DNA of 64,000 bases from Fidelibacterota bacterium (lineage in GTDB: Bacteria > Fidelibacterota > UBA8477 > JABMPR01): positions 65,136-129,135 of the forward strand of contig JABIFX010000253.1 of NCBI GenBank assembly GCA_018650445.1, given 5' to 3'. The notes below the pieces were generated by a model. It saw only the letters and a list, made by a program, of their open reading frames with translations, ran no database searches and had not been told where the DNA came from. Positions 3,966-48,533 of the stretch are shown in pieces (position 1 is the stretch's first letter; each line of letters opens with the position of its first letter). The translations under genes were made by a program, and so were the position numbers.

Positions 3966-3979
3966 ATTTCACCCCTAAA

Positions 3980-5008: not shown

Positions 5009-5042
5009 CTCTCTATACCTTCTTTATTCAAATGCCCGGGGA

Positions 5043-23672: not shown

Positions 23673-23685
23673 TGGAGAGGTCTGG

Positions 23686-28958: not shown

Positions 28959-28968
28959 ATTTCTATCC

Positions 28969-31723: not shown

Positions 31724-31788
31724 AACTAACTCTTACTTCATCATTATCCGTAGACTGAAAGCTCCATTGCTCTTGTCATGTGGGTTCA

Positions 31789-32857: not shown

Positions 32858-33952
32858 TCATTTCGTTGCGCTGGAGAGCTGCATCTGATCTTGAATTACA
32901 TTCAGCTCCATCCCGGTTGGTTTGAAGGGATAGTCACGATATTCTTCCCCTGGCCGATAGGAACCATAAGGACGGTTACAAGCCATTGCCCCATCCCGAT
33001 CAGGACAACCATTGGTCATAAATGGCAATCCCGTATCAATAGATTCCTGCACCATGGCATCTTCTGATTCAATGGCTGAAATATGATCCTGCTCATCAAA
33101 TAGAATGGCCTCGCGTTCCAGGTCTTTTTCCTCTATGAGGTATTTGGCCAGTTGAATTCTGCGGTGCCTTTGGATGGGTTGACGCTCCTGGTGCTGGAGG
33201 GCAGTTCCTTCTTCTGGATTGAATGAGAAGAGATATCCAGCTATTTCCTCACCCTTCAGCTTATAGAACATATCAATCAGATCTCGATCTGTTTCTCCTA
33301 AGCCAACAATCAGGTGGCAATTGACATTCATGGGTCCATAAATCTCCCGGGCCGCTCTCACCATTTCCCAGTGATAATCCCAGTCGTGGGGTCCCCGGGC
33401 TTCTTTGCCGCGGGTTTTAATAAACAATTCTTCAGTAACTGCATCCAGACCATACCCAATGATGTCGATGCCCTCTGCCTTGAGCTGTTTTAAAAAGGGC
33501 ACATCCATGGTGGTGGCATTTACCAATCCGGATAAGGGAACTCCAGGTGCTGCGCTGTGAATCCGCCGGGTAATCTCCAGCATATCATCATTGGCACGAT
33601 GGTCCTGTACTTGTGAAATACAGACACGTCCAACCGTGCTTTCAGCTTCCTTCTCAGCAATTTTTTCAGCGATTAATTCCGTGGAGAAAAGAGGCCAATC
33701 CACCCGAATAAAGCTATTCTCTTCAGCCAGTCCAGGACGCTCTCTCGCCAATCCACAGTAACTACAGTTGGCAAAGCAGCCCTCAGGATAATTTTGAAGT
33801 AGGTTGATGCAACCACAGCCACAGCCATGGATGCGACCCGGCTTTAACCCCAGTTCAATAGCTGCTGCCATACTTATGCGGACATAATCAGGACTGATAT
33901 TCAACAGTTCGGCCTGTTCTTGTGATGATAATTTTAATGCTTCAGCGTTCAT
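32858..33952 (-). CDS. radical SAM protein, candidate LipS-type lipoyl synthase component
   Basis: 364 aa with 'CFANCSYCGLA' (CxxxCxxC) preceded by an extra 'HGCGCGCINL' Cys cluster. It sits between two ligase-like genes. Confidence 0.65.
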   Translation of the reverse strand: MNAEALKLSSQEQAELLNISPDYVRISMAAAIELGLKPGRIHGCGCGCINLLQNYPEGCFANCSYCGLARERPGLAEENSFIRVDWPLFSTELIAEKIAEKEAESTVGRVCISQVQDHRANDDMLEITRRIHSAAPGVPLSGLVNATTMDVPFLKQLKAEGIDIIGYGLDAVTEELFIKTRGKEARGPHDWDYHWEMVRAAREIYGPMNVNCHLIVGLGETDRDLIDMFYKLKGEEIAGYLFSFNPEEGTALQHQERQPIQRHRRIQLAKYLIEEKDLEREAILFDEQDHISAIESEDAMVQESIDTGLPFMTNGCPDRDGAMACNRPYGSYRPGEEYRDYPFKPTGMELNVIQDQMQLSSATK

Positions 33953-34106: not shown

Positions 34107-35096
34107 TCACCACGTCACTCCGCAACACGCGTTAATAAATTTGGACTCCAGACCTTTCTCCTTGGCATAGCTGATTATTCCTTCTGAGGGAAAGGCTATC
34201 CCATTTAAACCGGCGTTAATGGCAAGCTGGTCAATGTCTATTTTTAAGGCTCCTAATGGACGGGCACATCCCAGTAAAATTGGAGACTGAGGAAGAGCCC
34301 GGCGGGCTGTTTCAAAAAAGTCCCCGATTTCATTGATTGATGGAGGCTTAACACCCTCCATTCCTGTTCCGGTTAAGGGGAGTAGAATCACCAGAACCAA
34401 TATTTTTGGTGAGTATTTTTTAATCATCTCCAGAGCAGCCCATTCACCATTCATTTTGCCAAAATAGTGACCTATGACAATATGAGGAATGGCTGGAATC
34501 CCATAACGATCCAGACGTTCTAGAACTTTATCATAATCTGCTGGTGTTGCATTGAGATGATAGACTTCTGAGATGGTTTCCTGGTCCCCAATTATATCCA
34601 GCATAACTCCATCGATATCCACTTCACTCAAAGCTTGACAGGTTGCTTCATCAGGCAAGCCTGGATGCACTCGAATAAGCAGATCAAGTTCACTTCTGAT
34701 GCGTTTCATATCAGCAATATGAGGTAGCAAAGGAACCTGGTTCATAGCATTACTGCCACCAGATATGAGCAAACCTTTGGCACCCTTCTCTTTTAAACTG
34801 ACAGCCATATCAAAAAGAGAACCATCAAAACTGGGTAAATCCAGCATCTTGTCCAGCATTTTGGTGTTACAATGCTCACAATTCAGAGCACAATTACTGC
34901 CAGTCACGCTGATTGATACAAACTCCCTTAACGATCCTGAAAACTCTGAGGTTTTATGTGGTTTTAAACCTGGACCATAAAAAGTTATTTCATTGGGGAA
35001 ATGTTCCTGACGGATATCAAAACATTCAGGGTTGACTAAATTTTTTGAAGTATCTATCACGGGTTGGGGTGGGCTGATAATGGTGAGCTCAGACAT
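34107..35096 (-). CDS. radical SAM protein, candidate LipS-type lipoyl synthase component
   Basis: The track ORF starts at GTG 35102. ATG 35096 ('MSELTIISPP') overlaps the upstream stop by 8 nt. 'SNCALNCEHCN' is the CxxxCxxC motif. Confidence 0.65.
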   Translation of the reverse strand: MSELTIISPPQPVIDTSKNLVNPECFDIRQEHFPNEITFYGPGLKPHKTSEFSGSLREFVSISVTGSNCALNCEHCNTKMLDKMLDLPSFDGSLFDMAVSLKEKGAKGLLISGGSNAMNQVPLLPHIADMKRIRSELDLLIRVHPGLPDEATCQALSEVDIDGVMLDIIGDQETISEVYHLNATPADYDKVLERLDRYGIPAIPHIVIGHYFGKMNGEWAALEMIKKYSPKILVLVILLPLTGTGMEGVKPPSINEIGDFFETARRALPQSPILLGCARPLGALKIDIDQLAINAGLNGIAFPSEGIISYAKEKGLESKFINACCGVTW

Positions 35097-36216
35097 GCAC
35101 ACTTCCCGGGCTTACAAAACATCCATATGGATCAACAGCTACTTTCTTCGCTGATACTTCAGCTCGCTTCAGTGCCATCTCCAGGGCTCGAATTAAGGCT
35201 TCCTGGGGCAGGGTCGCTAAATCATCTGACCAGCGTTTATAAACTTTGTTAATTGTTCCCAGGATAAGTTTGCTCTGGCTGGAGTGCCAGCGTAGTGATT
35301 GCTCAAGATCAGCAATGGCATTCTCAGAAGTAAAGAAGTCGCCTCCGATGAAGGTTGATTTGATCATCTTCCCAGCCAGGACCATCCTGACATCCAATAA
35401 TCCGCCAGCCGTCTTGACCTTGGCCTTACCAGTTGAATCTGGTACATCTGTTGTCTGATAGATCCAGTTTTTATCTAAATATTTTGAATTTTCAAGGTTT
35501 TGGGCTTCAACCAGCTCAGCATCAGAATAGTTTCCCTTTTGAATATCCACCTGAAAAGCTTCCTGATATCCTTCAAGAATTTTTTCCCGAACCTCATCGA
35601 CTGAAAGATTTTCCCCAACTTCTCTTCTCACGGTTGTGGTTCTTTCAGCAACCGTGGAAATTTCCTTGTCTGACAATTTCTCAAAAGGTGTATTAAGTAC
35701 ATTCAACATAAGGGGCACATCCAGATCAACCAACAGGGAAGCATGAAATAGCAAGCCACCAGAAGGGGTTCGGTGCAGTCCCAAACCGGCTATTTTTTTA
35801 CCGGCAATTTCCAGGTCATTTTTACGTCGAAATTCAATAGAACATCCCAGCGAAGATAAACCAGCTACTATTCCCCGGGAAAAGCGGGCCATTTGTTCAC
35901 GCACGCCAGCATATGAATCGTCGGATTTACCAGGAATAGCCAGGGCTACTCCGAGCTGTTCTGATCCCATAATGATAGCTCCACCACCAGTGGGACGTCG
36001 ATTTACTGAGATGCCGTGCTCTAAGCAATAATCCAGGTTAAGTTCACTTTCAATATTTTGGAAGCGACCTACCAGGGCACAGTGTGATTTATAAGTATAA
36101 AGCCTTAAAGTCTGGGGAGATTGCCCGGTACCTACCCGGCTAGCCAACATTTCATCAATAGCCAGTCCTGAAGTTGCTGAGACTTGATTGTCTTCGATAT
36201 AGCGTGAGATGTTCAA
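35089..36216 (-). CDS. lipoate-protein ligase-like protein (BPL_LplA_LipB family), copy 1
   Basis: 375 aa. The TTG start overlaps the LbpA stop (TTGA). Motifs are 'NRRPTGGGAIIMGSEQL' and 'IAGKKIAGLGLH'. Confidence 0.7.
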   Translation of the reverse strand: MNISRYIEDNQVSATSGLAIDEMLASRVGTGQSPQTLRLYTYKSHCALVGRFQNIESELNLDYCLEHGISVNRRPTGGGAIIMGSEQLGVALAIPGKSDDSYAGVREQMARFSRGIVAGLSSLGCSIEFRRKNDLEIAGKKIAGLGLHRTPSGGLLFHASLLVDLDVPLMLNVLNTPFEKLSDKEISTVAERTTTVRREVGENLSVDEVREKILEGYQEAFQVDIQKGNYSDAELVEAQNLENSKYLDKNWIYQTTDVPDSTGKAKVKTAGGLLDVRMVLAGKMIKSTFIGGDFFTSENAIADLEQSLRWHSSQSKLILGTINKVYKRWSDDLATLPQEALIRALEMALKRAEVSAKKVAVDPYGCFVSPGSVHV

Positions 36217-36647
36217 TCAAGCATACCCTGTGTCTCAAAGCGTTCAATTTCCTCATTCCACCAAGCTGTCACTTGGTCACCAGAGATCATGGTGTTGGCT
36301 TCTACAGCCCATTGTGTCGGTTCAATTCTTACTAACCAACCCTCATCATAGGGTTTTTCATTTACCAGCAATGGATTTCTCAATGCGGCTTCGTTTCTCT
36401 CCATAACGATGCCTGAGAGGGGGGCAATAAGTTCGCTGGTCATCTTGGCGGCTTCGATAGACCCCATGGCTTTACCTAATTCAACAGGTGAACCTACAGT
36501 TGGCAACATCAAATAGGCCAATTCTCCCATGGAATCCAAACCCAGTTCATCCATACCAACCAGGAGTTGACCTGAATCATCCTCCTTTATCCAAAGGTGA
36601 TTTGAGTTATAGTAAAACCCCGGCTTAAACTTGAATTGCTGCTTCAT
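36213..36647 (-). CDS. lbpA: GcvH-like lipoate-binding protein (LbpA-type), copy 1
   Basis: The track ORF is 173 aa. I prefer ATG 36647 ('MKQQFKFKPGFYYNSNHLWIKEDD'), because the longer form overlaps the upstream gene by 110 nt. The lipoyl-lysine context is 'GSIEAAKMTSELIAPLSGIV', followed by 'PYDEGWLVRI'. Confidence 0.8.
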   Translation of the reverse strand: MKQQFKFKPGFYYNSNHLWIKEDDSGQLLVGMDELGLDSMGELAYLMLPTVGSPVELGKAMGSIEAAKMTSELIAPLSGIVMERNEAALRNPLLVNEKPYDEGWLVRIEPTQWAVEANTMISGDQVTAWWNEEIERFETQGMLD

Positions 36648-38676
36648 CTGCCCCTGCTTCCACGGTTGGTTCTGGTAAATCCATGGCATCCATGACATAA
36701 TCAATGATATCCATGACTGCCATATCTGCTTCATGTCCCGATGTTTTTACTGCATCAGCATACATGGTCATGTCCTTGGGACAGGCCACGGTGAAATTAT
36801 TCACACCCACCGAAACGGCTTCTTCGATCCGATTTTCACTGGGTCGCTGATTCATATCCTCATGATCAGGCATCCATACCCGACCACCACCGGCACCACA
36901 GCAAAAACTGTTTTCCTTGTTACGGGGCATTTCAACAGTTTCGACACCACATAACTTCATGACTTCTCTGGGGGCATCATAAACACCATTGTAGCGACCG
37001 AGGTAACAGGGATCGTGATAGGTGGCCTTCATTCCCAAATTCTTCTTTAGTTTGATCTCGTCCTGTTGAATTAAGTCCAATAGCAAAGATGAATAATGTT
37101 TGACTTCAAACTCTCCACCAAGCTTTGGATATTCATTCTTAAGAGTATTAAATGTATGGGGATCTGTGGTAAAGATTTCTTCAAAATCACACTTTTGGAT
37201 GGATTCAATATTCTGTTCTGCCAGCACCTCAAAGAGTCCTTCTTCACCGACTCTGCGAACATCATTTCCTGCTGATTTCTCTCCTTTACCCATGATACCA
37301 AAATCAATTCCGGCTGCATTCAACACCTGGGCGACTTTGCGGGTGGTATCTTGACAATTCTGATTAAAACTGGCAAAATCTCCTACATACCACAGGTATT
37401 TTACTGGTTCCTTTGTCGCATCTTTGATTTTGAAATCCAATTCCTTGGACCATTTGGAGCGTTTACGGGCAGACTCATTAAATGAATTCCCCTGTTCATC
37501 CAGACTGCGCAAGACATCAGCCAGTTCATCAGGCATTTTTGCATCAAATACTTGTTTCCGACGAAGCTCCACGATATCCATCAAAGGTTCATTACCTACG
37601 GGACAGACTTGTACACAAGCATAACAAGTGGTACAGGACCAGAGTGCATCATCAGAAATGGCGTAATCCAGCATGGGTAGGTCTGCACTTCCATTGATAA
37701 CATCCGTGGCTTTATCCCGCACAAAATAGCGCTTGTTGATTTCAAGTGCGGACGGGCTGAGCGGCGTACCACTCTCATGGGCCGGGCAAACTTCATGACA
37801 ACGGGTACACATGATACAAGCCCATGTATCCAGGACTTGCGGCCAGGGTAAATCTGTGAGCGTTGTAGCTCCAGGAGATGTCGGATCCGAGATGGCATCC
37901 ATGGCTCCTCGGGGTGTCTGGCGACCTAAGGCCAGGTTCACCGGGGCAATCATCATATGAATGTGCTTAGAACTGGGGAAATAAGGAAGAAAGACCACAA
38001 TAAGACCCATGGCCAGCCACCAGGTTACATGGATACCTGTTTCCAGGGCACCTGGGGACCAGCTAGTGAATAATCCTGAAAGGATACTTGCTGTGGGTAA
38101 CCAGGCATCTGTATGACCATTTTCTGCTAAATGAAGGGCGGTTCCCATCCAACGAGATCCCACGTGGATCAAAATAAAAATGCCTACGATAAGTGAGTCT
38201 TTTTTGACACCACCAGCCGCCACATTGGGGTGGAGTTTTACATTGGCATTAAATTCCAAAACCTTGGGTTTTTTAATAAAGCGACGGTAGAGGAAAAAAA
38301 GCATCCCTGTTATTACCAGAACACTGAACAGGTCTGCAAAAAGATTAAATACTCCTGCAATGGAACCAGCACCGATGGTGGTCCAACCAGCCACATAGGC
38401 TTCCAGAATATCGTTCACATTCACCAGCAGATAAAAACTAAAACCAAAGAATATGAAGCTATGCATAAAACTTACAAATGGTCTGGCTTTAGAGATTGTT
38501 TTTTGGAGTCCGATTTCGATTAGAGTAGTGACAAAGCGACTGATAAGTTTATCAAACCTATCCATCTTGCCACCACGCGAAACGATTTGATAGATTTGTC
38601 TAAATCTACCAAAGGCCAGACTCAGGCAAACAATGACTAATACAATAAATCCAATTTGTTCATAGGTTGATAGCAT
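36625..38676 (-). CDS. membrane-anchored HdrD-like Fe-S oxidoreductase (N-terminal multi-TM His-rich domain + 2x[4Fe-4S] + 2 CCG domains; Etf:quinone oxidoreductase EtfD/EMO-like or DsrMK-like)
   Basis: 683 aa. The N-terminal ~250 aa has about 5-6 TM helices with conserved-looking His ('FMHSFIFFG', 'LIHVGSRW', 'GIHVTWWL', 'KHIHMM'). The rest has 'CIMCTRCHEVCP', 'CTTCYACVQVCP', 'YHDPCYLGRYNG' and 'FCCGAGGG'. Confidence 0.75.
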   Translation of the reverse strand: MLSTYEQIGFIVLVIVCLSLAFGRFRQIYQIVSRGGKMDRFDKLISRFVTTLIEIGLQKTISKARPFVSFMHSFIFFGFSFYLLVNVNDILEAYVAGWTTIGAGSIAGVFNLFADLFSVLVITGMLFFLYRRFIKKPKVLEFNANVKLHPNVAAGGVKKDSLIVGIFILIHVGSRWMGTALHLAENGHTDAWLPTASILSGLFTSWSPGALETGIHVTWWLAMGLIVVFLPYFPSSKHIHMMIAPVNLALGRQTPRGAMDAISDPTSPGATTLTDLPWPQVLDTWACIMCTRCHEVCPAHESGTPLSPSALEINKRYFVRDKATDVINGSADLPMLDYAISDDALWSCTTCYACVQVCPVGNEPLMDIVELRRKQVFDAKMPDELADVLRSLDEQGNSFNESARKRSKWSKELDFKIKDATKEPVKYLWYVGDFASFNQNCQDTTRKVAQVLNAAGIDFGIMGKGEKSAGNDVRRVGEEGLFEVLAEQNIESIQKCDFEEIFTTDPHTFNTLKNEYPKLGGEFEVKHYSSLLLDLIQQDEIKLKKNLGMKATYHDPCYLGRYNGVYDAPREVMKLCGVETVEMPRNKENSFCCGAGGGRVWMPDHEDMNQRPSENRIEEAVSVGVNNFTVACPKDMTMYADAVKTSGHEADMAVMDIIDYVMDAMDLPEPTVEAGADEAAIQV

Positions 38677-39176: not shown

Positions 39177-40121
39177 TCAATCCAATTCCTCTAATAGTTC
39201 TTCCACTACATCAAACAAATCTTCCGTCATTCCATAATGAGCGACGTCAAAAATAGGTGCGTTCTTATCTGTGTTGATGGCAATGATCGTAGATGTCGCT
39301 TTCATACCTTCGATATGCTCTGGAGCACCAGAAATACCCAGCGCGATATACACCTTCGGTTTTACCTTCATGCCGGATTTTCCAACCTGGTGAGATTTTG
39401 ACATCCAACCTGCATCAACGATAGGACGGGAGCAGGCAATATCTGCTTCCAGAGCTTCTGCCAGCTCTTCAGCAACTTCGATATCATCTTTACTGCCAAT
39501 ACCCCGGCCAACAGCCACCAGAATATCACTCTGAGTGATATCAACATCAGCTGCCTCTGGCTCAATCAATTGTTTAAAGCGAACCTTTCCGGCTCCGGCC
39601 TCAACTGCTGATGCTTCCACGGCTGGTGACCCGGAAACTCTCCCGGTATCCGCATTGAATGATCCTGCCAGAACCATAGAAATGAGGGCTCCATCCACAC
39701 TGCTAACAACATTCATTTTGCCACCATACATTTGACTTGTACAGGTAAATCCACCTCCTGCAGCCACGATATCTGCACAAAAACTTACAGTAGGAATATC
39801 GAGTGCTGTAGAAACAGGATTTGCTATATCAATCCCCATCGATGTAGAACCAATCATGATCAGATCTGGAGAATTTGCTGAAACGACAGATTTTACTGCT
39901 GCAGCGTATGCTTCAGGATTATAGTCATCACCAACTTCAGCCGTAATGACTGTATCCGCTGCTCCCATTTGATCGGTTTGACCACTCATACTGCCAAAGA
40001 CCATAGCTGAACATGACCCACCAGTAGATTGTGCAATTTCTTTGGCCTTCCCCAACATTTCAAATGTGATATCCTGGAATTCACCCTTCAGGTGTTCGGT
40101 TACAACGAGAATGTTAGCCAT
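39177..40121 (-). CDS. etfA: electron transfer flavoprotein, alpha subunit
   Basis: 314 aa. The C-terminal FAD domain reads 'VAVGRGIG...CSRPIVDAGW...QVGKSGMKVKPKVYIALGISGAPEHIEGM'. The start overlaps the etfB stop (TGATG). Confidence 0.9.
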   Translation of the reverse strand: MANILVVTEHLKGEFQDITFEMLGKAKEIAQSTGGSCSAMVFGSMSGQTDQMGAADTVITAEVGDDYNPEAYAAAVKSVVSANSPDLIMIGSTSMGIDIANPVSTALDIPTVSFCADIVAAGGGFTCTSQMYGGKMNVVSSVDGALISMVLAGSFNADTGRVSGSPAVEASAVEAGAGKVRFKQLIEPEAADVDITQSDILVAVGRGIGSKDDIEVAEELAEALEADIACSRPIVDAGWMSKSHQVGKSGMKVKPKVYIALGISGAPEHIEGMKATSTIIAINTDKNAPIFDVAHYGMTEDLFDVVEELLEELD

Positions 40122-40867
40122 CAGGCCACCCCCTTATCTTTCAATACGGCCATTAAGGCTTCAACATCATCCAGCATTTTAGCTCCCAAACCCTTTTCAG
40201 GTGCGGCCATACTGCTAATGGCACTTCCAGCTCCAGCCCCTAAATCACCGGCATCCATTTCCTGGATGGTTTCAGTTTGTTGGATTTGTCTCACTTTACT
40301 CACTGGAGCATAGCGAGGTGCTTGAGCCGCAGCTTGAATCCCCAACACTGCAGGAAGATCTACTTCAAACTCGCCCAACATACCGCCAGAGTATTCCTTC
40401 TGTACTGTAGCCTGTCCACCAGAGACGCTAACACCAGCCACGACACTGATGCAGGGGACTGATAGATATTCAGCCATAATGGGTCCCAAATGACCATCGC
40501 GACCATCAGCAGATTGCACTCCTGCCATAACCAGATCAAAACCCTCTGTGGCAACAGCATTGGCAAATGCTTTGGCTAATTGATGTATATCTGTGGGGCT
40601 GCTACCGTTTAATTTGATCGCCTTGTTTGCACCTTTGGCAATGGCAGTAAATAACATTTTGTCGACATCTTCCCCGTCAAAAGCCATTGCAACCACCTCG
40701 TCAGCCGCACCACTCTCTTTTAAGAGCAGCGCTTCCTCGAGTGCTTGATCGTCAAATTCATTTAATTTTAACTTGACCTCTTCAGCATCCAGAGCTTTTC
40801 CAGTGGCATCCACCTCCAGGTCTTCTACCAGGTCTGGTACTTGTTTTAAAGGCACGACGATCTTCAT
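40121..40867 (-). CDS. etfB: electron transfer flavoprotein, beta subunit
   Basis: 248 aa. 'MKIVVPLKQVPDLVEDLEVD' and 'DLVMAGVQSADGRDGHLGPIMAEYL' are typical of EtfB. GGAG SD upstream. Confidence 0.9.
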   Translation of the reverse strand: MKIVVPLKQVPDLVEDLEVDATGKALDAEEVKLKLNEFDDQALEEALLLKESGAADEVVAMAFDGEDVDKMLFTAIAKGANKAIKLNGSSPTDIHQLAKAFANAVATEGFDLVMAGVQSADGRDGHLGPIMAEYLSVPCISVVAGVSVSGGQATVQKEYSGGMLGEFEVDLPAVLGIQAAAQAPRYAPVSKVRQIQQTETIQEMDAGDLGAGAGSAISSMAAPEKGLGAKMLDDVEALMAVLKDKGVA

Positions 40868-40881
40868 ATTTCTCTCCTCAT

Positions 40882-41112
40882 TTACTTCATACGCTGGATA
40901 AAAAAGTTTCTCGTATCACCAGCTTCTTCTATATCTAATAATTTCTGTCCGGACGACCTGCACCAGGCGTTGATATCAGGGACTGATCAGGGGTGAGCAC
41001 TACTCAACTGAAGAACGCCCCCGATAGGGAGATTCCTCAAAGCCTGCCAGGATCGAATCACTGGCATACCCATTCCACAAGGTCCCGTATCAATGTGCAA
41101 ATCTACTTTCAT
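40882..41112 (-). CDS. TusA/SirA-fold small protein (76 codons) interrupted by one in-frame TGA at codon 42 (plus-strand 40987..40989): candidate selenoprotein or recent pseudogene
   Basis: Found by hand; it is below the ORF-track size cutoff. The ATG at 41112 overlaps the upstream stop (TGATG). Translation is MKVDLHIDTGPCGMGMPVIRSWQALRNLPIGGVLQLSSAHP-TGA-SVPDINAWCRSSGQKLLDIEEAGDTRNFFIQRMK-TAA. This aligns without gaps to the TusA at 47408..47644 (ELDCKGMNCPLPILKTKKQIDTMGSGEVLKMIATDPGSINDMTSWTKRTGNELL...YVFFIKKT). The natural stop lies 14 nt before the etfB ATG. Confidence 0.55.
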
Positions 41113-42410
41113 CAGGCAGTGTCTTCGCCTTCACTCATGCAATAATCAAGAATTTCAATGATATCCATGACCAGTAGCTTACCATCATTATTTGTAGATT
41201 TAACAGCATCTTCAAAACGTGAGACTTCATAGGGGCAGCAGACAGCTAATATCTCAGCACCTACTTCCACAGCTTCCTTGACCCGGTTTTCCGATAGACG
41301 TTCAGCAGAGTTATCCGCCATGAGTCCATCCAACCACATGCCTCCACCACCTCCACCGCAGCAATAGGCTTGTTCTTTGTTTCGATACATTTCCATATAT
41401 TCGATCTCAGGGACGGCATTCAAAAGAGTGCGCGGGGCATTGTATTCGCCATTATGACGACCTAAATAGCAGGGATCATGAAAAGTAACCTTCTTGGGGA
41501 AGGGCCGTTTCATCAGCTTGGCTAAATCATCAACCCGTTCTTCCAGGAGTTGGGTATAGTGCTGTAAATTGTATTCTTTTCCGGTAACAGCAGGGTAGAA
41601 ATTCTTAAAAGCATTGTAAGCATGGGGATCACTGACGACCAATTTGTTATGTTCATATTTATCAAACTGGATTCCATTATGTTCTGCCAATTCTTCAAAT
41701 AAACCGGATTCACCCACCAGACGCTGAGAATCACCATCACATTTTTCTTCTTTTCCCAGGATGCCAAAATCAATCCCCAAACGATTAAACACTCGTACAG
41801 TTGCTTTGGCGGCATCATTTCCACGATTGTGGTAGGAGAAGTAATCACTGACGTACCATAAAACATCTACTGGCTCTGGGTCCGTTTCTTTTGACAAATC
41901 GCGAACGGGTTCTTCAAATTTGCGTAGCCATCCCACTCGTTTACGGGCTGATTCGCCCATAGGATTGCCATATTCAGCAACATTCTGCAACATGTCCTGT
42001 ATTTCACCAGGAACATTGCCATTCAATACTGCCTGTTCTCTGGCTGCAGGGATAATCTGAATCATATCGACTTCTTTTGGACAAACACGAAGACAATTTG
42101 AACAAGTCGTGCACAGCCATAAATCATCATGATCGAAAAAATCCATACCGGTCTGAAGCTTTCGAAAAATTTTGCGTGGTCCATAGCTACCTACATTATC
42201 GACAGGACAAACCCCAATGCATTGGGCACATTGATAGCAGGCATTGATGGATTTAGCACCGGGTAACTCACGTAATTTTTCGAGACCGTCAATATCATAG
42301 GTCAGGATCTCACGGGGTTCATACATCTTGTTCCACTCACCGGATAGATCAACCCCATCTACTACGACATTGTCTTTCTGGACAAATTTTTCATATTTAT
42401 GTTCAGACAT
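41112..42410 (-). CDS. soluble HdrD-like Fe-S protein (2x[4Fe-4S] + 2 CCG domains; HdrC/HdrB fusion type, 'sHdrB3'-like)
   Basis: 432 aa with 'CYQCAQCIGVCP', 'CTTCSNCLRVCP', 'FHDPCYLGRHNG' and 'YCCGGGGG'. It is clearly paralogous to the C-terminal two thirds of 36625..38676. Confidence 0.8.
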   Translation of the reverse strand: MSEHKYEKFVQKDNVVVDGVDLSGEWNKMYEPREILTYDIDGLEKLRELPGAKSINACYQCAQCIGVCPVDNVGSYGPRKIFRKLQTGMDFFDHDDLWLCTTCSNCLRVCPKEVDMIQIIPAAREQAVLNGNVPGEIQDMLQNVAEYGNPMGESARKRVGWLRKFEEPVRDLSKETDPEPVDVLWYVSDYFSYHNRGNDAAKATVRVFNRLGIDFGILGKEEKCDGDSQRLVGESGLFEELAEHNGIQFDKYEHNKLVVSDPHAYNAFKNFYPAVTGKEYNLQHYTQLLEERVDDLAKLMKRPFPKKVTFHDPCYLGRHNGEYNAPRTLLNAVPEIEYMEMYRNKEQAYCCGGGGGGMWLDGLMADNSAERLSENRVKEAVEVGAEILAVCCPYEVSRFEDAVKSTNNDGKLLVMDIIEILDYCMSEGEDTA

Positions 42411-42412
42411 TA

Positions 42413-43168
42413 TTAATTCATCTCCATACTTTTTACCCCAAGAATCTGCTGGGTCAACTCAGTCAGCTCAGGTAATATCCGATTAAATTCTTGGGAAAGT
42501 TTCACGCGAAAAACTGTATACATGTAGACAGCATACACACAGGCAAAAAAGATATCTGTTCCGAATAATCCTGCTCCAGCACTGGAAAAACCAACTCGGT
42601 GCCCTACAGCATTCACCAGCGCGGTGGTTTGTCCTATCTTGACATACAGCTCCCCTGGAGTCTTGGCTTCAAGATCAATATCGTCTTGTAGAACCAGAGA
42701 TAATGCTCCGGTATGTTTCTTGAAATCCCAGATCCAGTTTGTCCAAAGCCAATATTTTTGCGGATTAGAGAAGTGCAATAATTCGCAAATTAGATTGAAG
42801 CGCATCGTATCGTTCATCATTTCCAGTGCCTGACTGGCTTGATTAAATCTGACATCCAGGGCTTCATCGCCGTAGAGTAAAGTTGCCAATGTTTCTCTCA
42901 GGGATTCAATTTCTATCGCCTTCAAGATTTTATTCGCTTTCCGCTTAATGGAAAAAATAGAAGCAATGAGCTGCTTGAATTCATCCGCAGTCAGTTCTGC
43001 AATGTGCTCTTCAGACAACAGCTCTGAAAACAATCTGGCTTTATTCTCCAGGCGTTGCCCGATATCTTCCAGATCAGTGGAAGTTGCCAATTTGGTCGCT
43101 TCTTTCATAAACTCCAAAGCGGCTTCAGAGTCTACAACATCTGCAATATTTACTTTATCGTAGAGCAT
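42413..43168 (-). CDS. hypothetical protein at the 'hyp' position of shdr clusters
   Basis: 251 aa with no motif I recognise. It sits between the HdrA-like and HdrD-like genes (gaps of 0 and 2 nt). Confidence 0.5.
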   Translation of the reverse strand: MLYDKVNIADVVDSEAALEFMKEATKLATSTDLEDIGQRLENKARLFSELLSEEHIAELTADEFKQLIASIFSIKRKANKILKAIEIESLRETLATLLYGDEALDVRFNQASQALEMMNDTMRFNLICELLHFSNPQKYWLWTNWIWDFKKHTGALSLVLQDDIDLEAKTPGELYVKIGQTTALVNAVGHRVGFSSAGAGLFGTDIFFACVYAVYMYTVFRVKLSQEFNRILPELTELTQQILGVKSMEMN

Positions 43169-44236
43169 TTAGGCTGGTTGTAACTCAGATTTTCTTATAA
43201 AACTACAGGCCTTCATCACGGCTGAGCCACCCATGGAAACAGAATCTTCCAAATCAGCTGGACCGGCGGCCGCACCAACAACAAAAACACCAGGGACCGT
43301 GGTTTCAACTGTATTCAAAGCTCCACCAGTAGTTTCTATATAGCCATGTGGTTCGAGGGGTAGCTCGAAGGTATCAGCCATTTCTACGGTTCCATCACTG
43401 GGCTCCATGCCTACTGATAGAATAACTACATCCATGGCAACTTCCATGGGACGACCCATGGTGGTATCTTCACCCTTTACAACCAGCGTGTCACCTCGTT
43501 TTGTTACTTCGGTAACAATACCACGGATAAAATTCACATTATAGTCTTCCTGGGCTTTCCAATAAATTTCATCTTCCCAGAAGCCGTAGGTACGCATATC
43601 GATATAAAAGACAAAAACGCGTGCATCTGGAGCGGCTTCTTTGACTTCAATGGCTTGCTTACAAGCAATGCCGCAGCAGACCTTGGAACACCACTGATTT
43701 CCTATCTGACGATCTCTACTTCCAACACATTGGATAAAACAGACGGTTTTGGGGGCTTCTCCAGTTGACGGTCGGGCAAACTCATCTGCCTTGAGCATTT
43801 TCTCAGCATCCACCAGAGTGATCACATCTTCAAACTCATAGTAACCATACATCTGGGTTTCTTTGCCTGGATCAAAATGTTTGAAGCCTGTGGCAACGAT
43901 GACGCTACCCACTTCTAGAATTTCTTCACCTCCGGCATTTTTCACAGTCACTTCCATATTGGGCGCATCACCCTTGGAACCGACAACCGTGGTACTCAAA
44001 CGAATATCTATAGATGGATTGTCCGTAATAGCAACAATCATCTCACCCATGGCCTCTTCCGGACTGCGCATATCCGGGGTCAAAGCAGCATAGTCGGCTG
44101 AAATAGGCATTCCGCCCAGAAAATCGGCCTTTTCAATCAAAATAGCCTGATACCCGAGATCAGCGATCCCACGCACAGCCTCTAAACCGGCAGGTCCACC
44201 ACCGATAACTAATATTGGTTTACTTGACATCTGCAT
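43169..44236 (-). CDS. hdrA: short HdrA-like FAD/[4Fe-4S] flavoprotein (sHdrA-type)
   Basis: 355 aa with 'ILVIGGGPAGLEA' and 'CFIQCVGSRDRQIGNQWCSKVCCGIAC' (four-Cys cluster motif). It lacks the ferredoxin and MvhD-binding domains of methanogen HdrA. Confidence 0.85.
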   Translation of the reverse strand: MQMSSKPILVIGGGPAGLEAVRGIADLGYQAILIEKADFLGGMPISADYAALTPDMRSPEEAMGEMIVAITDNPSIDIRLSTTVVGSKGDAPNMEVTVKNAGGEEILEVGSVIVATGFKHFDPGKETQMYGYYEFEDVITLVDAEKMLKADEFARPSTGEAPKTVCFIQCVGSRDRQIGNQWCSKVCCGIACKQAIEVKEAAPDARVFVFYIDMRTYGFWEDEIYWKAQEDYNVNFIRGIVTEVTKRGDTLVVKGEDTTMGRPMEVAMDVVILSVGMEPSDGTVEMADTFELPLEPHGYIETTGGALNTVETTVPGVFVVGAAAGPADLEDSVSMGGSAVMKACSFIRKSELQPA

Positions 44237-45428
44237 CCTCCCATGTCATAAAATCCAGTTCTCCACTTTCAATTCTTCCAGCGATGGCTTCAAATTCTCC
44301 CCATGCTTTTTTGTAGTCGATTCCCATCTTTTCCAGCAACGGCTTATTATCAACTCCATGCCAGTGAAGCTGACAAACGTTATACGGATGAGCACCCATG
44401 GCTAAGGCAGCGTACTGTGCATCGGATAGCACAGGAATGCCCACATTTCTACCATGTGCCTTTGCAGCAAATTGGCTTTTATCCAGAGTGGTAACACAAC
44501 CCGTGTCATGGGTCAGGGTCACATCAGGATCCACTTCTTCCTTCATTCGTTCAATTTTTCTAATGGTGGCAAAAGAGCGCGAAAAATCCCTGCTCACCAG
44601 AATATGCCTGAAGCCGAATCCACAGCAATCATGCCAGGTGGAATAATCAGCTGCAGTAGATCCCAGAGCTTCAACCAAGCTGGTTACCACAGCAGTACGT
44701 TGTCCATCATATAATTCGCGGTCATAGATAGCATCCTCTACAACCAGTTTGTGGTAATGACAGGCGGGATGAACTGTGACAGTTAGATCGCTAAAATCCA
44801 GAACCTGTCTTTCTGCAATTCGGTGCCGCATGACATGGATCCATTCAGAGTAATGCACGATCTCTTCTGGGAAGACAAAGGGCATTTTCAATTTGTCCAT
44901 TATGCGACGCACCTGGTCTCTTAGTTCAGGGTGATGTATGATTTCTTCCCGAGTTTCCTTATAATGACCAAAACTGGTTCCACAATGGATCAGGGGGAAA
45001 TATCCATCCTGTTTGGCTTGAGCAAAGTTACGTACAGCTACAGAAGCCTGGGCGGCGGAGTTTGATGTAGAAGAAGCATAGTAATTCCAGGCCGTACAGG
45101 ATGATTGATCCTTGGGATCATAGTAATCCAGACCAAACTGTCTGTGTAGCCAGAAAATGGCTGTTGAATACCCTGGAATATGTCCACACTGTCCGCAGGA
45201 TTTATGATGCCAAGTATGTTCGATGGGTATCTTTTTTTTCCTGCCATATTTGGTCTCTACTTCTTCAAATGGTTCGGGGACTCGGTGTACTTCCAACTCA
45301 CCTTTAGCTTCTAATTCAAAGAGCTTCTCCCGGTAATCTTCCGTAGGTGGTTTGCCCTTACGAACATACTCTCGCATTGGCGACTTTTTCTCGGTATGTA
45401 CTGCCGGTGCTTGGGTTGTCTCTGCCAT
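44220..45428 (-). CDS. hdrB: HdrB-like CCG-domain protein (sHdrB1-type)
   Basis: 402 aa with 'WHDCCGFGFRH', 'HPACHYHK' and 'HDTGCVTT'. It overlaps the hdrA-like start by 17 nt. Confidence 0.8.
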   Translation of the reverse strand: MAETTQAPAVHTEKKSPMREYVRKGKPPTEDYREKLFELEAKGELEVHRVPEPFEEVETKYGRKKKIPIEHTWHHKSCGQCGHIPGYSTAIFWLHRQFGLDYYDPKDQSSCTAWNYYASSTSNSAAQASVAVRNFAQAKQDGYFPLIHCGTSFGHYKETREEIIHHPELRDQVRRIMDKLKMPFVFPEEIVHYSEWIHVMRHRIAERQVLDFSDLTVTVHPACHYHKLVVEDAIYDRELYDGQRTAVVTSLVEALGSTAADYSTWHDCCGFGFRHILVSRDFSRSFATIRKIERMKEEVDPDVTLTHDTGCVTTLDKSQFAAKAHGRNVGIPVLSDAQYAALAMGAHPYNVCQLHWHGVDNKPLLEKMGIDYKKAWGEFEAIAGRIESGELDFMTWEDADVK

Positions 45429-45461
45429 TATATTATTTCCTTGTTGCTAAGCTCTGTTTTA

Positions 45462-46181
45462 TCAATCATCCAGGATATTCTCGAAGTCATCTATATCATA
45501 TCCATTGTCTTCCAGAAGCTCTTCCATCACTTCTTCCAGAATCATATAAATTCCCTCATCAATCCCTTCGATGAGCTCCAGGTTACCGGTCAATTTCCAG
45601 ATCATATAAAGTTCGAGTCTGGTTTTTTCAGAAACATCCCAGGCCAGTTCAGTGGTATGCAGCGTCTCCGGGGGAATGGCTCTACGCCAGACATCCAGAT
45701 TTTCAGCAACTGCTTTTACATCATTACCCCAGTCTGGGAAAAAGTCGGGTTGAAGCATATCAGGGGCTACCTGAGTTCCGGTGGCCATGACTTTGTAGAT
45801 AATGCGACTGTAAGCTTGTAAAGCATCTTTAGCAGATTGCAAACCGCGGCGGACAGCTGCATCGCGCATCATGAGAATAATTCCACCGGGATTATTCTGA
45901 CGGGGGCAACGGGTACACGAGTAACATTGAGAGCAATCCCAGACGCTATCATTTAACAGCTCATAGAAGGTGTCCACATCTTCACGAGCCATGGTCTGGG
46001 CAAAAACGCGGGGACTGAAATCATAAAATCTGGCGGAGGGACATGCGGCAACACAAATTCCGCATTCATAGCAACCGTACAAATTATTTCCATATCGCAT
46101 GTCAGCCTTGACTTCATTGAAGAGTTCTAATTTCTCTTCATAGGGGACATCCATATATTTTGCATCTTTATAAATCGACAT
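45462..46181 (-). CDS. hdrC: HdrC-like 2x[4Fe-4S] ferredoxin subunit (sHdrC1-type)
   Basis: 239 aa with 'CYECGICVAACP' and 'CSQCYSCTRCP'. Confidence 0.8.
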   Translation of the reverse strand: MSIYKDAKYMDVPYEEKLELFNEVKADMRYGNNLYGCYECGICVAACPSARFYDFSPRVFAQTMAREDVDTFYELLNDSVWDCSQCYSCTRCPRQNNPGGIILMMRDAAVRRGLQSAKDALQAYSRIIYKVMATGTQVAPDMLQPDFFPDWGNDVKAVAENLDVWRRAIPPETLHTTELAWDVSEKTRLELYMIWKLTGNLELIEGIDEGIYMILEEVMEELLEDNGYDIDDFENILDD

Positions 46182-46493: not shown

Positions 46494-46955
46494 TTAGCCT
46501 TCAAAGCCTTCGCAATGAATGCACTCGCCCATATCCTTTTCAGCCATATAAGCATCAAATCCAACAATGGCATCTGCTCCGTTGACCAAGGCACTTGCCT
46601 CTTCATCGAAATTGCTGGGGTTGATTTTGACAATCCAGCCAGCTTTATAAGGACTCTTATTAAGGAGTGTACCATCACCTGCAACAGCTTCATTGGCCTC
46701 CATAATCTCACCGGCAAAGGGAGTTTTAACGGGGCCAACCCATTTACCACTTTCTACAGTGGCTACACTTTTTCCCAGCTTGACTGAGCGACCCACTTTT
46801 TTAGGACGACAATGGATAATACTTCCAGCCATGCTTTGGGCGATATCAGTCATCCCCAAATCGACGGTTCCATCATCATTCTTGCGTACCCATACGTTAT
46901 ACTCAACGTGGTACAGAAGATCATCAGGTAACATGCAGTTTTTTAATTCAGCCAT
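46494..46955 (-). CDS. lbpA: GcvH-like lipoate-binding protein (LbpA-type), copy 2, with C-terminal CxxC extension
   Basis: 153 aa. The lipoyl-lysine context is 'VATVESGKWVGPVKTPFAGEI', followed by 'PYKAGWIVKI'. There is an extra C-terminal tail 'DMGECIHCEGFEG'. Confidence 0.8.
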   Translation of the reverse strand: MAELKNCMLPDDLLYHVEYNVWVRKNDDGTVDLGMTDIAQSMAGSIIHCRPKKVGRSVKLGKSVATVESGKWVGPVKTPFAGEIMEANEAVAGDGTLLNKSPYKAGWIVKINPSNFDEEASALVNGADAIVGFDAYMAEKDMGECIHCEGFEG

Positions 46956-46970: not shown

Positions 46971-47345
46971 TTAGTACGTTAAAACCATATCACTTTCGAG
47001 GCCAACATCCGTCATATAGGCAGCTCCAACAACGCCATCACAGGCTTCAGTCAGGTCATCCTCTGTCATATCGTGTAGCTGAAGTGCGGCAGAACAGACA
47101 TACATTTCAACATCAGCATCTTTCGCATCCTGGATGAAATCGGCCACAGATTTACCACCCTCTTTTGCAAACAGCCCTTCAGAAACACCGTGTTTCAGCA
47201 ACAGAATTCCGTCAATCTGGAATATCATTTCTACCTCATTATCCATGGCAGCAGCAACACTGGCCATATAAAATGGAGTTGCACATCGCTGTGGAGTTGC
47301 CGGACCAGAGGTCACGAATATGGTTACTTTTCCTTCGTCAGACAT
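46971..47345 (-). CDS. DsrE/DsrF-family sulfur-relay protein (DsrE3-like)
   Basis: 124 aa with 'VTIFVTSGPATPQRCATPFYMASVAAAMD' and 'MYVCSAAL'. Confidence 0.7.
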   Translation of the reverse strand: MSDEGKVTIFVTSGPATPQRCATPFYMASVAAAMDNEVEMIFQIDGILLLKHGVSEGLFAKEGGKSVADFIQDAKDADVEMYVCSAALQLHDMTEDDLTEACDGVVGAAYMTDVGLESDMVLTY

Positions 47346-47407: not shown

Positions 47408-47644
47408 TTACGTTTTCTTTATAAAAAAAACGTAATCGCCACCATCCTGAGAGTGTGATAGTAGTTCATTACCGGTACGTTTTGTCCATGAAGTCATGTC
47501 ATTAATAGATCCCGGGTCAGTGGCTATCATTTTTAAAACCTCTCCAGAACCCATTGTATCAATCTGTTTCTTGGTTTTCAGGATAGGCAAAGGACAATTC
47601 ATACCTTTGCAGTCAAGTTCTTGGTCATATGCTTGATCGTTCAT
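47408..47644 (-). CDS. tusA: TusA-family sulfur carrier
   Basis: 78 aa. 'LDCKGMNCPLPILKTKK' is the canonical CPxP active site, and '...ATDPGSINDM' follows. Confidence 0.9.
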   Translation of the reverse strand: MNDQAYDQELDCKGMNCPLPILKTKKQIDTMGSGEVLKMIATDPGSINDMTSWTKRTGNELLSHSQDGGDYVFFIKKT

Positions 47645-47668: not shown

Positions 47669-48184
47669 TTAAACAAACAGAGATATATCAGAGTCAGCTG
47701 CGAACTCTAGAAAAGTTGCCGCTCCACCCAGATCAACACCATCGATGAATTGATCTTTAGTAAACCCAAATACATCCATGGTCATCTGACAACCAATCAG
47801 TTTTACTCCCATTTCTACACAGATATCACGTAATTCCTCTATGCTGGCGACGCCTTTGTTTGCAAAAGTCTTCTTCATAAGCGATGTAGCCATGGTTTCA
47901 AACCCAGGTACGTTTCCAGCGATAACATTTGGAATCGGCCAACTAATATTTTGGAAGCCCTGGGGTCCAAAAGGCATTTTCATAGGCATCGCTGGATTTG
48001 TTTGCGGAGCAACCTTGGCAGAAAGATCTTTTTGAAGTAGTGTCAATCCGTAAAACGTAAAGAAGATTCCTACCTCCATATCCATTGCGGCAGCAGTGGA
48101 GGCCAGGATAAAGGGTGGATATGCCCAATCCAGGGTTCCCTGTGATGCTATAAGAGCTAATCGTTTGGGTTTGGTTTCACTCAT
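47669..48184 (-). CDS. DsrE-related protein (DrsE_2-like, ~170 aa type)
   Basis: 171 aa with 'RLALIASQGTLDWAYPPFILASTAAAMDMEVGIFFTFYGL' and 'LIGCQMTMDVFG'. Confidence 0.65.
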   Translation of the reverse strand: MSETKPKRLALIASQGTLDWAYPPFILASTAAAMDMEVGIFFTFYGLTLLQKDLSAKVAPQTNPAMPMKMPFGPQGFQNISWPIPNVIAGNVPGFETMATSLMKKTFANKGVASIEELRDICVEMGVKLIGCQMTMDVFGFTKDQFIDGVDLGGAATFLEFAADSDISLFV

Positions 48185-48533
48185 GTTTACTCCTTTTTGA
48201 CTCTGGAAATATATCTTTCATCTGCATTTCACCTGTCTCCAGGTCCAGTCTGCAGGAATTCATACATTCCAGAAGTTTGCGGATCATGTCACTGGCTAAT
48301 GAATAATATGTGCTGGTCCCCTCTTTACGTGATGCGAGAATATTGTTGTTTTGCATAAAGCGTAAATGTTGCGAGGTAACGGGCTGGGACAGACCTATTC
48401 CCTGTTGGATTCTACCAACTGTCTGCTCACCAGTCTGGAGCAGTTCAATTATTTTCAGCCGTTCTGGGTGCCCCAAAGCTTTGAGAACTTTTGAGGCCGC
48501 CTCGAAAAACACTATGTTATTTACAGCATTCAT
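48177..48533 (-). CDS. ArsR/SmtB-family transcriptional regulator (sHdrR/SoxR-like position)
   Basis: 118 aa. The winged helix reads 'HPERLKIIELLQTGEQTVGRIQQGIGLSQPVTSQHLRFMQNNNILASRKEGTSTYYSL', and Cys residues occur in 'LLECMNSC'. It is the first gene of the minus-strand cluster. Confidence 0.8.
   Translation of the reverse strand: MNAVNNIVFFEAASKVLKALGHPERLKIIELLQTGEQTVGRIQQGIGLSQPVTSQHLRFMQNNNILASRKEGTSTYYSLASDMIRKLLECMNSCRLDLETGEMQMKDIFPESKRSKHE

Follow-up and report, generated by a model that had tools for sequence, protein, structure and literature searches.

Five adjacent genes on the minus strand of a 64-kb DNA stretch from a Fidelibacterota bacterium (assembly GCA_018650445.1, contig JABIFX010000253.1, positions 65,136 to 129,135 of the forward strand) were analysed. 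The whole stretch is referred to as the window, and all positions are those of the window. The genes (41112-46181) very probably, at about 85%, make up the core of a type II sHdr-LbpA system, which would oxidise protein-bound sulfane sulfur to sulfite in the cytoplasm of marine Marinimicrobia (SAR406), with the electrons leaving through the protein sHdrB3. The assignment is based on gene identities, cofactor ligands, paralogy and synteny. The genes shdrC1, shdrB1, shdrA, shdrH and shdrB3 encode a ferredoxin-like protein (sHdrC1), a CCG-domain subunit (sHdrB1), a short flavoprotein (sHdrA), a conserved protein (sHdrH) and a fusion of ferredoxin and CCG domains (sHdrB3), respectively.

The five-gene core and its published counterpart

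Two kinds of shdr gene cluster were distinguished by Tanabe et al. 2024, namely type I (shdrC1B1AHC2B2) and type II (shdrC1B1AHB3-etfAB-emo) (PMC11094781), and the definition of type II is repeated in a further paper (PMC11582611). Type II clusters have been reported from 130 GTDB assemblies, which represent 12 phyla of bacteria and one of archaea, and Marinisomatota is among the phyla that carry either type (PMC11094781). Cao et al. 2018 had already drawn this gene order, EtfBA and a "CCG domain" protein included, as their Group III (PMC6067878). The original prediction, made from the sequence alone, had described an sHdr core completed by one HdrD-like fusion protein in place of HdrC2 and HdrB2, with an electron-output half that is built differently. 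This description agrees with published type II; the novelty that it implied does not hold, as the gene order is real but already published and named, this phylum included. Kumpel et al. 2024 (BBA), as cited by later papers, is said to be the primary source for sHdrB3 and EMO, and a type II system of Sulfobacillus was reportedly described by Justice et al. 2014.

All five open reading frames were confirmed on the minus strand, and shdrC1, shdrB1, the short shdrA and shdrH are adjacent in that order. The predicted order (HdrC-HdrB-HdrA-hypothetical-fusion), the protein lengths and the motifs GGGPAGLEA, CVGSRD...CSKVCCGIAC, HDCCGFG, FHDPCYLG and YCCGGGGG were likewise recovered in the window proteins. 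Two CxxCxxCxxxCP motifs had been assigned to sHdrC1; the first is present, whereas the second is CxxCxxCxxCP (C83/86/89/92). The HdrC, HdrB and HdrA models of NCBIfam rank first for sHdrC1, sHdrB1 and sHdrA, respectively, and all three score far under the methanogen cut-offs. The canonical type I cluster of Thioalkalivibrio sp. ALJ24 (L054) was used as reference. The proteins sHdrC1, sHdrB1 and sHdrA show 45% (E = 1e-79), 48% (E = 1e-139) and 42% (E = 6e-100) identity to their Thioalkalivibrio counterparts, respectively. The sHdrB1 protein, which is the proposed catalytic subunit, can also be aligned to methanogen HdrB. The sHdrA protein has a pyridine-nucleotide-disulfide oxidoreductase fold by Pfam. 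Its whole sequence is matched by the sHdrA crystal structure from Hyphomicrobium denitrificans (6TJR, E = 9e-88), and methanogen HdrA covers just the C-terminal two thirds (residues 104-351).

The 251-aa protein is identified as sHdrH by its gene position, which is that of type I sHdrH, and by its homology to the Thioalkalivibrio protein (23% identity, E = 3e-8). It had been predicted to be an unknown protein with no recognisable cofactor motif. No Cys/His pattern hinting at a cofactor was found in it. In the literature, sHdrH is soluble and has no assigned function (PMC11582611). Searches of Pfam and NCBIfam gave no family match for sHdrH, and its 291 homologues are all unannotated, none having a Pfam domain. 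The best conserved part is the C-terminal 50 residues (61-sequence alignment). The AlphaFold model is all-alpha (mean pLDDT 76, pTM 0.75), with low confidence in the conserved C-terminal helices, and a Foldseek search of this model against the PDB gave no relative (best E = 0.67, TM 0.17). The most that can be suggested is that sHdrH is an adaptor, assembly or structural subunit. In two Chlorobi loci (L023 and L049, at about 9960-10001), shdrA is followed by shdrB3 after about 39 bp with no shdrH in between, and therefore sHdrH is not universally required at this position. These two loci would fail the published shdrC1B1AHB3 criterion despite the presence of etfBA and emo.

The five core genes form the middle of a 17-kb cluster in which all genes lie on one strand (Table 1). 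In the order of transcription, the core is preceded by genes encoding an ArsR-type regulator, a DsrE2/E3-family protein, TusA, DsrE, LbpA and a thioredoxin-like protein with a CSGC motif. It is followed by genes encoding EtfB, EtfA, a YgaP-like protein, a 683-aa ETF:menaquinone oxidoreductase (EMO), LbpA2, a lipoate-protein ligase, LipS1, a LipS2-like protein, an LplA-fold protein and a radical-SAM-like protein. The gene etfB begins 244 bp downstream of shdrB3; etfAB is thus syntenic with the shdr core, which is the operational criterion used in the literature. The other partners associated with type II are also encoded, namely emo, two GcvH-like proteins, sLpl(AB), LipS1, the LipS2-like protein, TusA and two DsrE-family proteins. 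The window EMO matches the cryo-electron microscopy structure of EtfD from Mycobacterium smegmatis (9ojn) in its membrane domain (18-326) as well as in its soluble domain (340-672), with E = 1.5e-82, and is therefore an EMO/EtfD-type ETF:menaquinone oxidoreductase.

No separate hdrC2 or hdrB2 gene, the finding that the original prediction had named as evidence against it, and no second Hdr set were detected in the 64-kb window. In a tblastn search of the window with the Thioalkalivibrio proteins (E < 1e-3), sHdrC2 matched only the N-terminus of sHdrB3 and sHdrB2 matched nothing; the separate shdrC2 and shdrB2 that follow shdrH in type I are thus absent from this stretch.

The arrangement recurs in many other genomes. 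The closest are metagenome-assembled genomes (MAGs) of Marinimicrobia/Neomarinimicrobiota (85% identity in sHdrB3), and in the public assembly collection 109 blocks contain the exact sHdrB3 sequence of the window. The order C1-B1-A-H-B3 is retained in 49 related genome loci from about ten phyla (Marinisomatota, SAR324, marine group II archaea, Calditrichota, Chlorobi, Acidobacteriota, Myxococcota, Bacteroidota, KSB1 and Planctomycetota). The genes C1-B1-A were found in 37 of the 38 loci with enough upstream flank. In every related locus with upstream flank, shdrB3 directly follows shdrH, or shdrA in the two Chlorobi loci. All 26 loci with at least 7 kb of downstream sequence contain both etfB and etfA, and in the gene listings each of them also has its own EMO-like gene; the co-occurrence of B3-type clusters with etfAB, a survey of which had been proposed, is essentially obligatory. 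Lipoate genes are inserted between shdrB3 and etfB in Bacteroidota, KSB1 and Saprospiraceae. Two contigs of one Marinimicrobia MAG (NNSG01; L003 and L004) each carry B1-A-H-B3 with the same identities to the window, and this doubling is probably due to strain redundancy in the bin and not to a true duplication.

Relative to published type II systems, the window cluster has the same gene content and order, the single-site sHdrB3, EtfBA, EMO, two LbpA, TusA and DsrE-family proteins, lipoate-assembly genes and an ArsR-type regulator. Nothing essential differs; the window extras are the CSGC gene before shdrC1 and the YgaP-like gene between etfA and emo. The type I systems of Thioalkalivibrio, Hyphomicrobium denitrificans and Aquifex aeolicus share homologous C1, B1, A and H, as well as LbpA, TusA/DsrE and lipoate-assembly genes, and their sHdrC2 is homologous to the N-terminus of sHdrB3, including its N-terminal extension. 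In contrast, type I systems contain separate C2 and B2 genes, with two complete CCG Cys sets in B2, and lack etfAB and emo.

Two other candidates for a type I reference were set aside. A tblastn search of plasmids with sHdrB1 gave only Acidithiobacillus ferrooxidans plasmids with an orphan sHdrB1-like gene, and the sHdrB1 homologue of Thermithiobacillus is also an orphan. These genes, at 3150-4490 of A. ferrooxidans plasmid pACF1 (L051) and 8001-9365 of the Thermithiobacillus tepidarius chromosome locus (L052), occur without C1, A, H, C2 or B2. The pACF1 protein is 52% identical to the window sHdrB1. The neighbouring genes encode hemerythrin, DUF2249 and thioredoxin proteins in both, together with a GcvH-like protein on pACF1 and a globin and an Rrf2 regulator in T. 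tepidarius. The orphan genes may represent a separate use of the sHdrB1 module.

Cofactor sites and origin of sHdrB3

The cysteines of sHdrB3 were audited by aligning 115 homologues with the window sequence (n = 116). The eight ferredoxin cysteines (58, 61, 64, 68, 100, 103, 106 and 110) are essentially invariant, with C110 present in 115 of the 116 sequences. In the C-terminal CCG domain, C314, C350, C351 and C392 are invariant and C391 occurs in 113 sequences, and His263 is also invariant. The N-terminal CCG fold contains a sole cysteine, C224, found in 78% of the sequences. The two ferredoxin motifs and the two CCG-fold stretches (Pfam) of the original prediction are therefore present, but not Cys motifs in both CCG domains: FHDPCYLG and YCCGGGGG, which had been quoted as evidence of two such domains, both lie in the C-terminal one. 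The proposed check that both non-cubane Cys patterns are intact gave a positive answer for the C-terminal domain and a negative one for the N-terminal domain. Because the N-terminal CCG fold keeps just the partly conserved C224, sHdrB3 is predicted to have only one intact non-cubane [4Fe-4S] site, formed by C314, C350, C351, C391/C392 and H263. A di-cluster ferredoxin plus CCG protein with one non-cubane site, replacing shdrC2/shdrB2, is the form that sHdrB3 takes in type II.

The residues of sHdrB3 were mapped to EtfD by an alignment of the two proteins and the EtfD ligand list of PMC13083937. Three of the four ligand positions of the linear [3Fe-4S] cluster D1 are replaced throughout the family (C503 by D, C581 by G/D and C584 by A), whereas the ligands of the non-cubane cluster D2 are retained, His263 included. 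The second cysteine of the CPxC motif is gone and C391 directly precedes the first, which gives an invariant CCP(Y/F)E signature. The window EMO likewise lacks D1. Both proteins share with the mycobacterial EtfD (Rv0338c homologue) a soluble module of two ferredoxin and two CCG domains and the D2 non-cubane ligands with His, and resemble the D1-less relatives FadF and DgcB, which are also without the linear [3Fe-4S] ligands. Unlike EtfD, sHdrB3 has no membrane or haem domain, has an sHdrC2-type N-terminus and CC for CxxC, and is encoded inside the shdr operon. The five-helix membrane domain with haem b that characterises EtfD/EMO proteins is found in the neighbouring 683-aa protein.

The alignment of the fusion protein against sHdrC2 and sHdrB2, another check proposed earlier, was carried out by segment with the Thioalkalivibrio reference. 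Residues 1-140 match sHdrC2 (33% identity, 84 bits) better than the window EMO (46 bits), and the match spans the N-terminal VVDGVDxSGxWN, which lies ahead of the ferredoxin motifs. Residues 141-300 match the window EMO (41% identity, 123 bits) and give no match to sHdrB2, and residues 301-432 match EMO with 45% identity and 113 bits versus 26 bits (E = 0.002) for sHdrB2. The full-length protein shows 38% identity to the soluble half of EMO over 405 residues (E = 2e-89, 274 bits). Its match to EtfD 9ojn (E = 7e-53, 183 bits) covers EtfD residues 402-741, with a further weak match at the first ferredoxin motif. According to these segment scores, sHdrB3 would replace C2 and B2 functionally; its N-terminus is C2-like and its CCG half is of the EMO/EtfD type with no close relative in sHdrB2. 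By sequence comparison, residues 141-432 and the soluble module of the EMO/EtfD protein encoded nearby are paralogues, and these residues are barely sHdrB2-like. The literature treats sHdrB3 as sHdrC2 fused to sHdrB2, with only one non-cubane Fe/S cluster bound (PMC11094781, PMC11582611), whereas the CCG half examined here is EMO/EtfD-like.

Type I sHdrB2 contains two complete CCG Cys sets (C10, CC42/43 and C80xxC83; C157, CC204/205 and C240xxC243). In a three-way MAFFT alignment of sHdrB2 with the CCG halves of sHdrB3 and EMO, the N-terminal CxxC region of sHdrB2 was aligned unreliably, and no claim is made on the sHdrB2 residue at His263. Methanogen HdrBC/HdrD proteins (5ODC and relatives) share with sHdrB3 the ferredoxin module (HdrC, E = 1e-20) and the CCG fold (HdrB, E = 5e-8). 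Methanogen HdrB, however, binds two catalytic non-cubane clusters with a bridging Cys each, whereas sHdrB3 has one site with an EtfD-type His.

A grouping of the 432-aa protein with GlpC, LutA or GlcF, as the subunit of an unrelated dehydrogenase that is a chance neighbour of the Hdr-like genes, is hardly credible. The combination of Fer4 and CCG domains is shared with GlpC and GlcF, and weak NCBIfam matches to GlpC (64.8 bits versus a cut-off of 278) and GlcF (25 bits) were obtained. The matches to EMO (274 bits), EtfD (183 bits), TfrB (141 bits in NCBIfam) and, at the N-terminus, sHdrC2 (84 bits) are stronger, LutA gave no match, and no partner genes (glpAB, lutBC or glcDE) lie nearby. The position of shdrB3 is fixed in all loci with upstream flank, as described above. 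This grouping, which the original prediction had offered as a possible refutation, was rejected.

It is tentatively proposed, at a little under an even chance, that sHdrB3 combines an sHdrC2-type ferredoxin with a duplicated EMO/EtfD ETF-docking module bearing a single His-capped non-cubane cluster, so that a pure relay replaces the second disulfide-reductase site of type I. If so, ETF would stand between two paralogous HdrD-like modules, with sHdrB3 donating and EMO accepting electrons, and the sHdrB2 chemistry of type I would be dispensable for sulfane-sulfur oxidation. The sole increment over the literature is the segment-level paralogy of sHdrB3 with EMO/EtfD and the EtfD-type ligands, and this may already stand in Kumpel et al. 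2024.

Proposed electron route and alternative functions

The steps of the pathway are taken from the literature (PMC11094781, PMC11582611); for this genome the direction of electron flow, the docking of ETF and the sulfur chemistry are inferred. TusA and the DsrE-family proteins would deliver persulfide (sulfane) sulfur, and the sHdrA/B1/C1 core with lipoylated LbpA would oxidise it to sulfite. The electrons would exit through sHdrB3, standing in for type I sHdrC2 and sHdrB2, and would pass via EtfAB and EMO to menaquinone. D1-less homologues of EtfD (FadF and DgcB) are argued to exchange electrons with ETF directly at D2 (PMC13083937). Since sHdrB3 and EMO are both D1-less and His-bearing and bracket etfBA, sHdrB3 is proposed to be the ETF-docking and ETF-reducing output relay, with no second disulfide-reducing active site, and EMO the ETF-oxidising module at the membrane. 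The nearest solved relative of EtfB is the beta subunit of the non-bifurcating Methylophilus methylotrophus ETF (118 bits versus at most 73 for bifurcating ETFs). This similarity favours, without proving, a simple one-way transfer.

The main alternative considered is a catalytic role of sHdrB3. In this case, sHdrB3 would be an HdrD/DsrK-like disulfide (or tri/persulfide) reductase whose single non-cubane cluster reduces or oxidises a thiol/disulfide carrier such as LbpA lipoamide, the CSGC protein or a DsrE/TusA persulfide, and EtfAB/EMO would be a separate electron sink. The strict conservation of five cysteines at the C-terminal CCG site, the NCBIfam matches to DsrK, TmcB, HmcF and TfrB, the conserved CSGC thioredoxin-like protein in the cluster and the disulfide-reductase role assigned to the type I counterpart sHdrB2 (PMC11094781) are all consistent with such a role. 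It is nevertheless unlikely: the CCG half is far nearer to EMO/EtfD than to sHdrB2 in the segment scores, the HdrB CxxC ligand pair is replaced by CC...E, and the EtfD-type His263 is invariant. In EtfD this His completes the coordination of D2 and is argued to make the cluster non-catalytic (PMC13083937).

Some points weigh against the relay of electrons from sulfane-sulfur oxidation through sHdrB3. The last ligand pair of sHdrB3 is CC instead of CxxC, and the geometry may differ from that of EtfD D2. Five cysteines are present at its CCG site, and in DsrK-type proteins one non-cubane cluster suffices for catalysis. The comparison of EtfA does not separate bifurcating from non-bifurcating types. 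The absence of a type I set was established for the 64-kb window only, and genetic or biochemical evidence is still awaited for every type II system (PMC11094781).

The last of these points also bears on whether the cluster serves dissimilatory sulfur oxidation at all. The cluster could instead take part in another lipoate- and ETF-linked redox process, for example the degradation of organosulfur compounds or the detoxification of persulfides, or could operate in the reductive direction, while type II function is unproven (PMC11094781). The rest of the window is of heterotroph type, with genes for glycoside hydrolases, an acyl-CoA ligase, an aldehyde dehydrogenase and a penicillin amidase, and no sox, sqr or dsr genes were found among the window open reading frames scanned. 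Such a function is improbable, however, because the genes of a full sulfur relay (TusA and two DsrE-family proteins) and of an ArsR-type regulator lie beside the core. In addition, a molybdoenzyme without twin-arginine signal, paired with an FeS-NrfD protein and fitting cytoplasmic sulfite oxidation, follows the cluster together with anion symporters, the pair being co-conserved across phyla, and known type II carriers include established sulfur oxidisers (PMC11094781). The oxidation of sulfane sulfur with electron exit through sHdrB3 thus remains the preferred interpretation.

Accessory genes and genomic surroundings

The features of the cluster are listed in Table 1.

Table 1. Genes of the shdr cluster in order of transcription, with window positions and the matches that support each assignment
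Feature	Position	Strand	Evidence
ArsR-type regulator, sHdrR-like position at cluster head	48177..48533	-	Pfam HTH_5, E = 1.5e-9
DsrE2/DsrE3-family sulfur transferase (PF13686)	47669..48184	-	Pfam DrsE_2, E = 5.6e-50
TusA sulfur carrier	47408..47644	-	Pfam TusA, E = 5e-25
DsrE-like sulfur transferase	46971..47345	-	Pfam DsrE, E = 1.5e-16
LbpA1, GcvH-like lipoate-binding protein	46494..46955	-	Pfam GCV_H, E = 1e-35
Thioredoxin-like protein, CSGC motif, 91 aa	46190..46465	-	NCBIfam MJ0307-type thioredoxin, E = 4.5e-6, below cut-off
sHdrC1, ferredoxin-like, 2 x [4Fe-4S], 239 aa	45462..46181	-	Pfam Fer4_8; NCBIfam best = HdrC models
sHdrB1, CCG-domain subunit, 402 aa	44220..45428	-	Pfam CCG; NCBIfam best = HdrB, E = 7e-35
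sHdrA, short FAD/[4Fe-4S] flavoprotein, 355 aa	43169..44236	-	Full-length match to 6TJR, E = 9e-88
sHdrH, conserved protein, 251 aa	42413..43168	-	Homology to type I sHdrH; no Pfam/NCBIfam match
sHdrB3, ferredoxin + CCG fusion, 432 aa	41112..42410	-	Pfam Fer4 + two CCG stretches
EtfB	40121..40867	-	Pfam ETF
EtfA	39177..40121	-	Pfam ETF, ETF_alpha; PDB matches
YgaP-like transmembrane protein, 73 aa	38799..39020	-	Pfam YgaP-like_TM, E = 7e-20
EMO, EtfD-type membrane-bound ETF:menaquinone oxidoreductase, 683 aa	36625..38676	-	EtfD 9ojn match; Pfam Fer4 + CCG
LbpA2, second GcvH-like lipoate-binding protein	36213..36647	-	Pfam GCV_H, E = 9e-29
sLpl(AB)-type lipoate-protein ligase	35089..36216	-	Pfam LplA-B_cat, E = 2e-41; NCBIfam lipoate-protein ligase models, below cut-off
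LipS1 lipoyl synthase	34107..35102	-	NCBIfam LipS1, 240 bits, above cut-off of 230
LipS2-like radical SAM lipoyl synthase	32858..33952	-	NCBIfam best = LipS2, 196.9 bits, below cut-off of 270
Second LplA/LipB-fold protein, 348 aa	31789..32835	-	Pfam LplA-B_cat, E = 1.3e-28

The ArsR-type regulator is kept at the head of the cluster in many related loci. The DsrE2/DsrE3-family protein scores above the NCBIfam DsrE2 cut-off (215.8 versus 210 bits), and LbpA1, with its lipoyl-lysine in ..VESGKWVG.., scores under the NCBIfam GcvH cut-offs. The CSGC gene lies between lbpA1 and shdrC1 and occupies the same position in most related type II loci. The protein corresponds to a 91-aa gene call in contig L001, which is identical to the window, and the longest open reading frame (186 aa) is an over-extension into lbpA1. 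The CSGC protein is a possible thiol/disulfide partner of the sHdr complex.

The YgaP-like protein between etfA and emo has no rhodanese domain and is found at the same position in one other locus only (L013). The longest open reading frame of lbpA2 (36213-36734) shares 110 nt with the 3' end of emo. In contig L001, LbpA2 starts at an internal Met (144 aa, corresponding to the table entry), and the overlap with emo shrinks to 23 nt. The second LplA/LipB-fold gene adjoins the lip genes in related loci too. Together with a gene for a 370-aa radical-SAM/SPASM-like protein it comes after LipS2 (30611-32835, minus strand), and the two are co-conserved with the lipoate-assembly genes across several phyla. 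No LipT-like flavoprotein was seen within the cluster.

Further along the minus strand (26100-30579, with 22269-26003), a 952-aa molybdopterin oxidoreductase without a twin-arginine signal (N-terminus MKRSFIEKLAEG...) is encoded. The gene upstream of it in the order of transcription encodes a 536-aa fusion of a four-cluster FeS subunit and an NrfD membrane subunit. In at least 10 loci of other phyla (marine group II archaea, Chlorobi, Myxococcota and Acidobacteriota), the two genes are likewise found in synteny with type II shdr clusters. The pair is a candidate for a SoeABC-like sulfite dehydrogenase that faces the cytoplasm and in which SoeB and SoeC are fused. Two DASS anion symporters and a Usp protein are encoded downstream of the pair. 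Genes of central metabolism encoding a split class I fumarate hydratase and a two-subunit 2-oxoacid:ferredoxin oxidoreductase are located at 2504-6881 (minus strand). An aconitase gene (48762-51440, plus strand) lies directly upstream of the shdr regulator and is transcribed divergently from it.

The value of these results lies mainly in the correct annotation of a type II sHdr-LbpA sulfur-oxidation cluster, present in complete form, in SAR406/Marinimicrobia, a marine lineage of high abundance. The interpretation of sHdrB3 and EMO as paralogous D1-less EtfD-type modules provides a concrete and testable picture of how electrons would exit via ETF. The cluster supports a role of the mostly heterotrophic SAR406/Marinimicrobia in oxidising reduced sulfur in the ocean.

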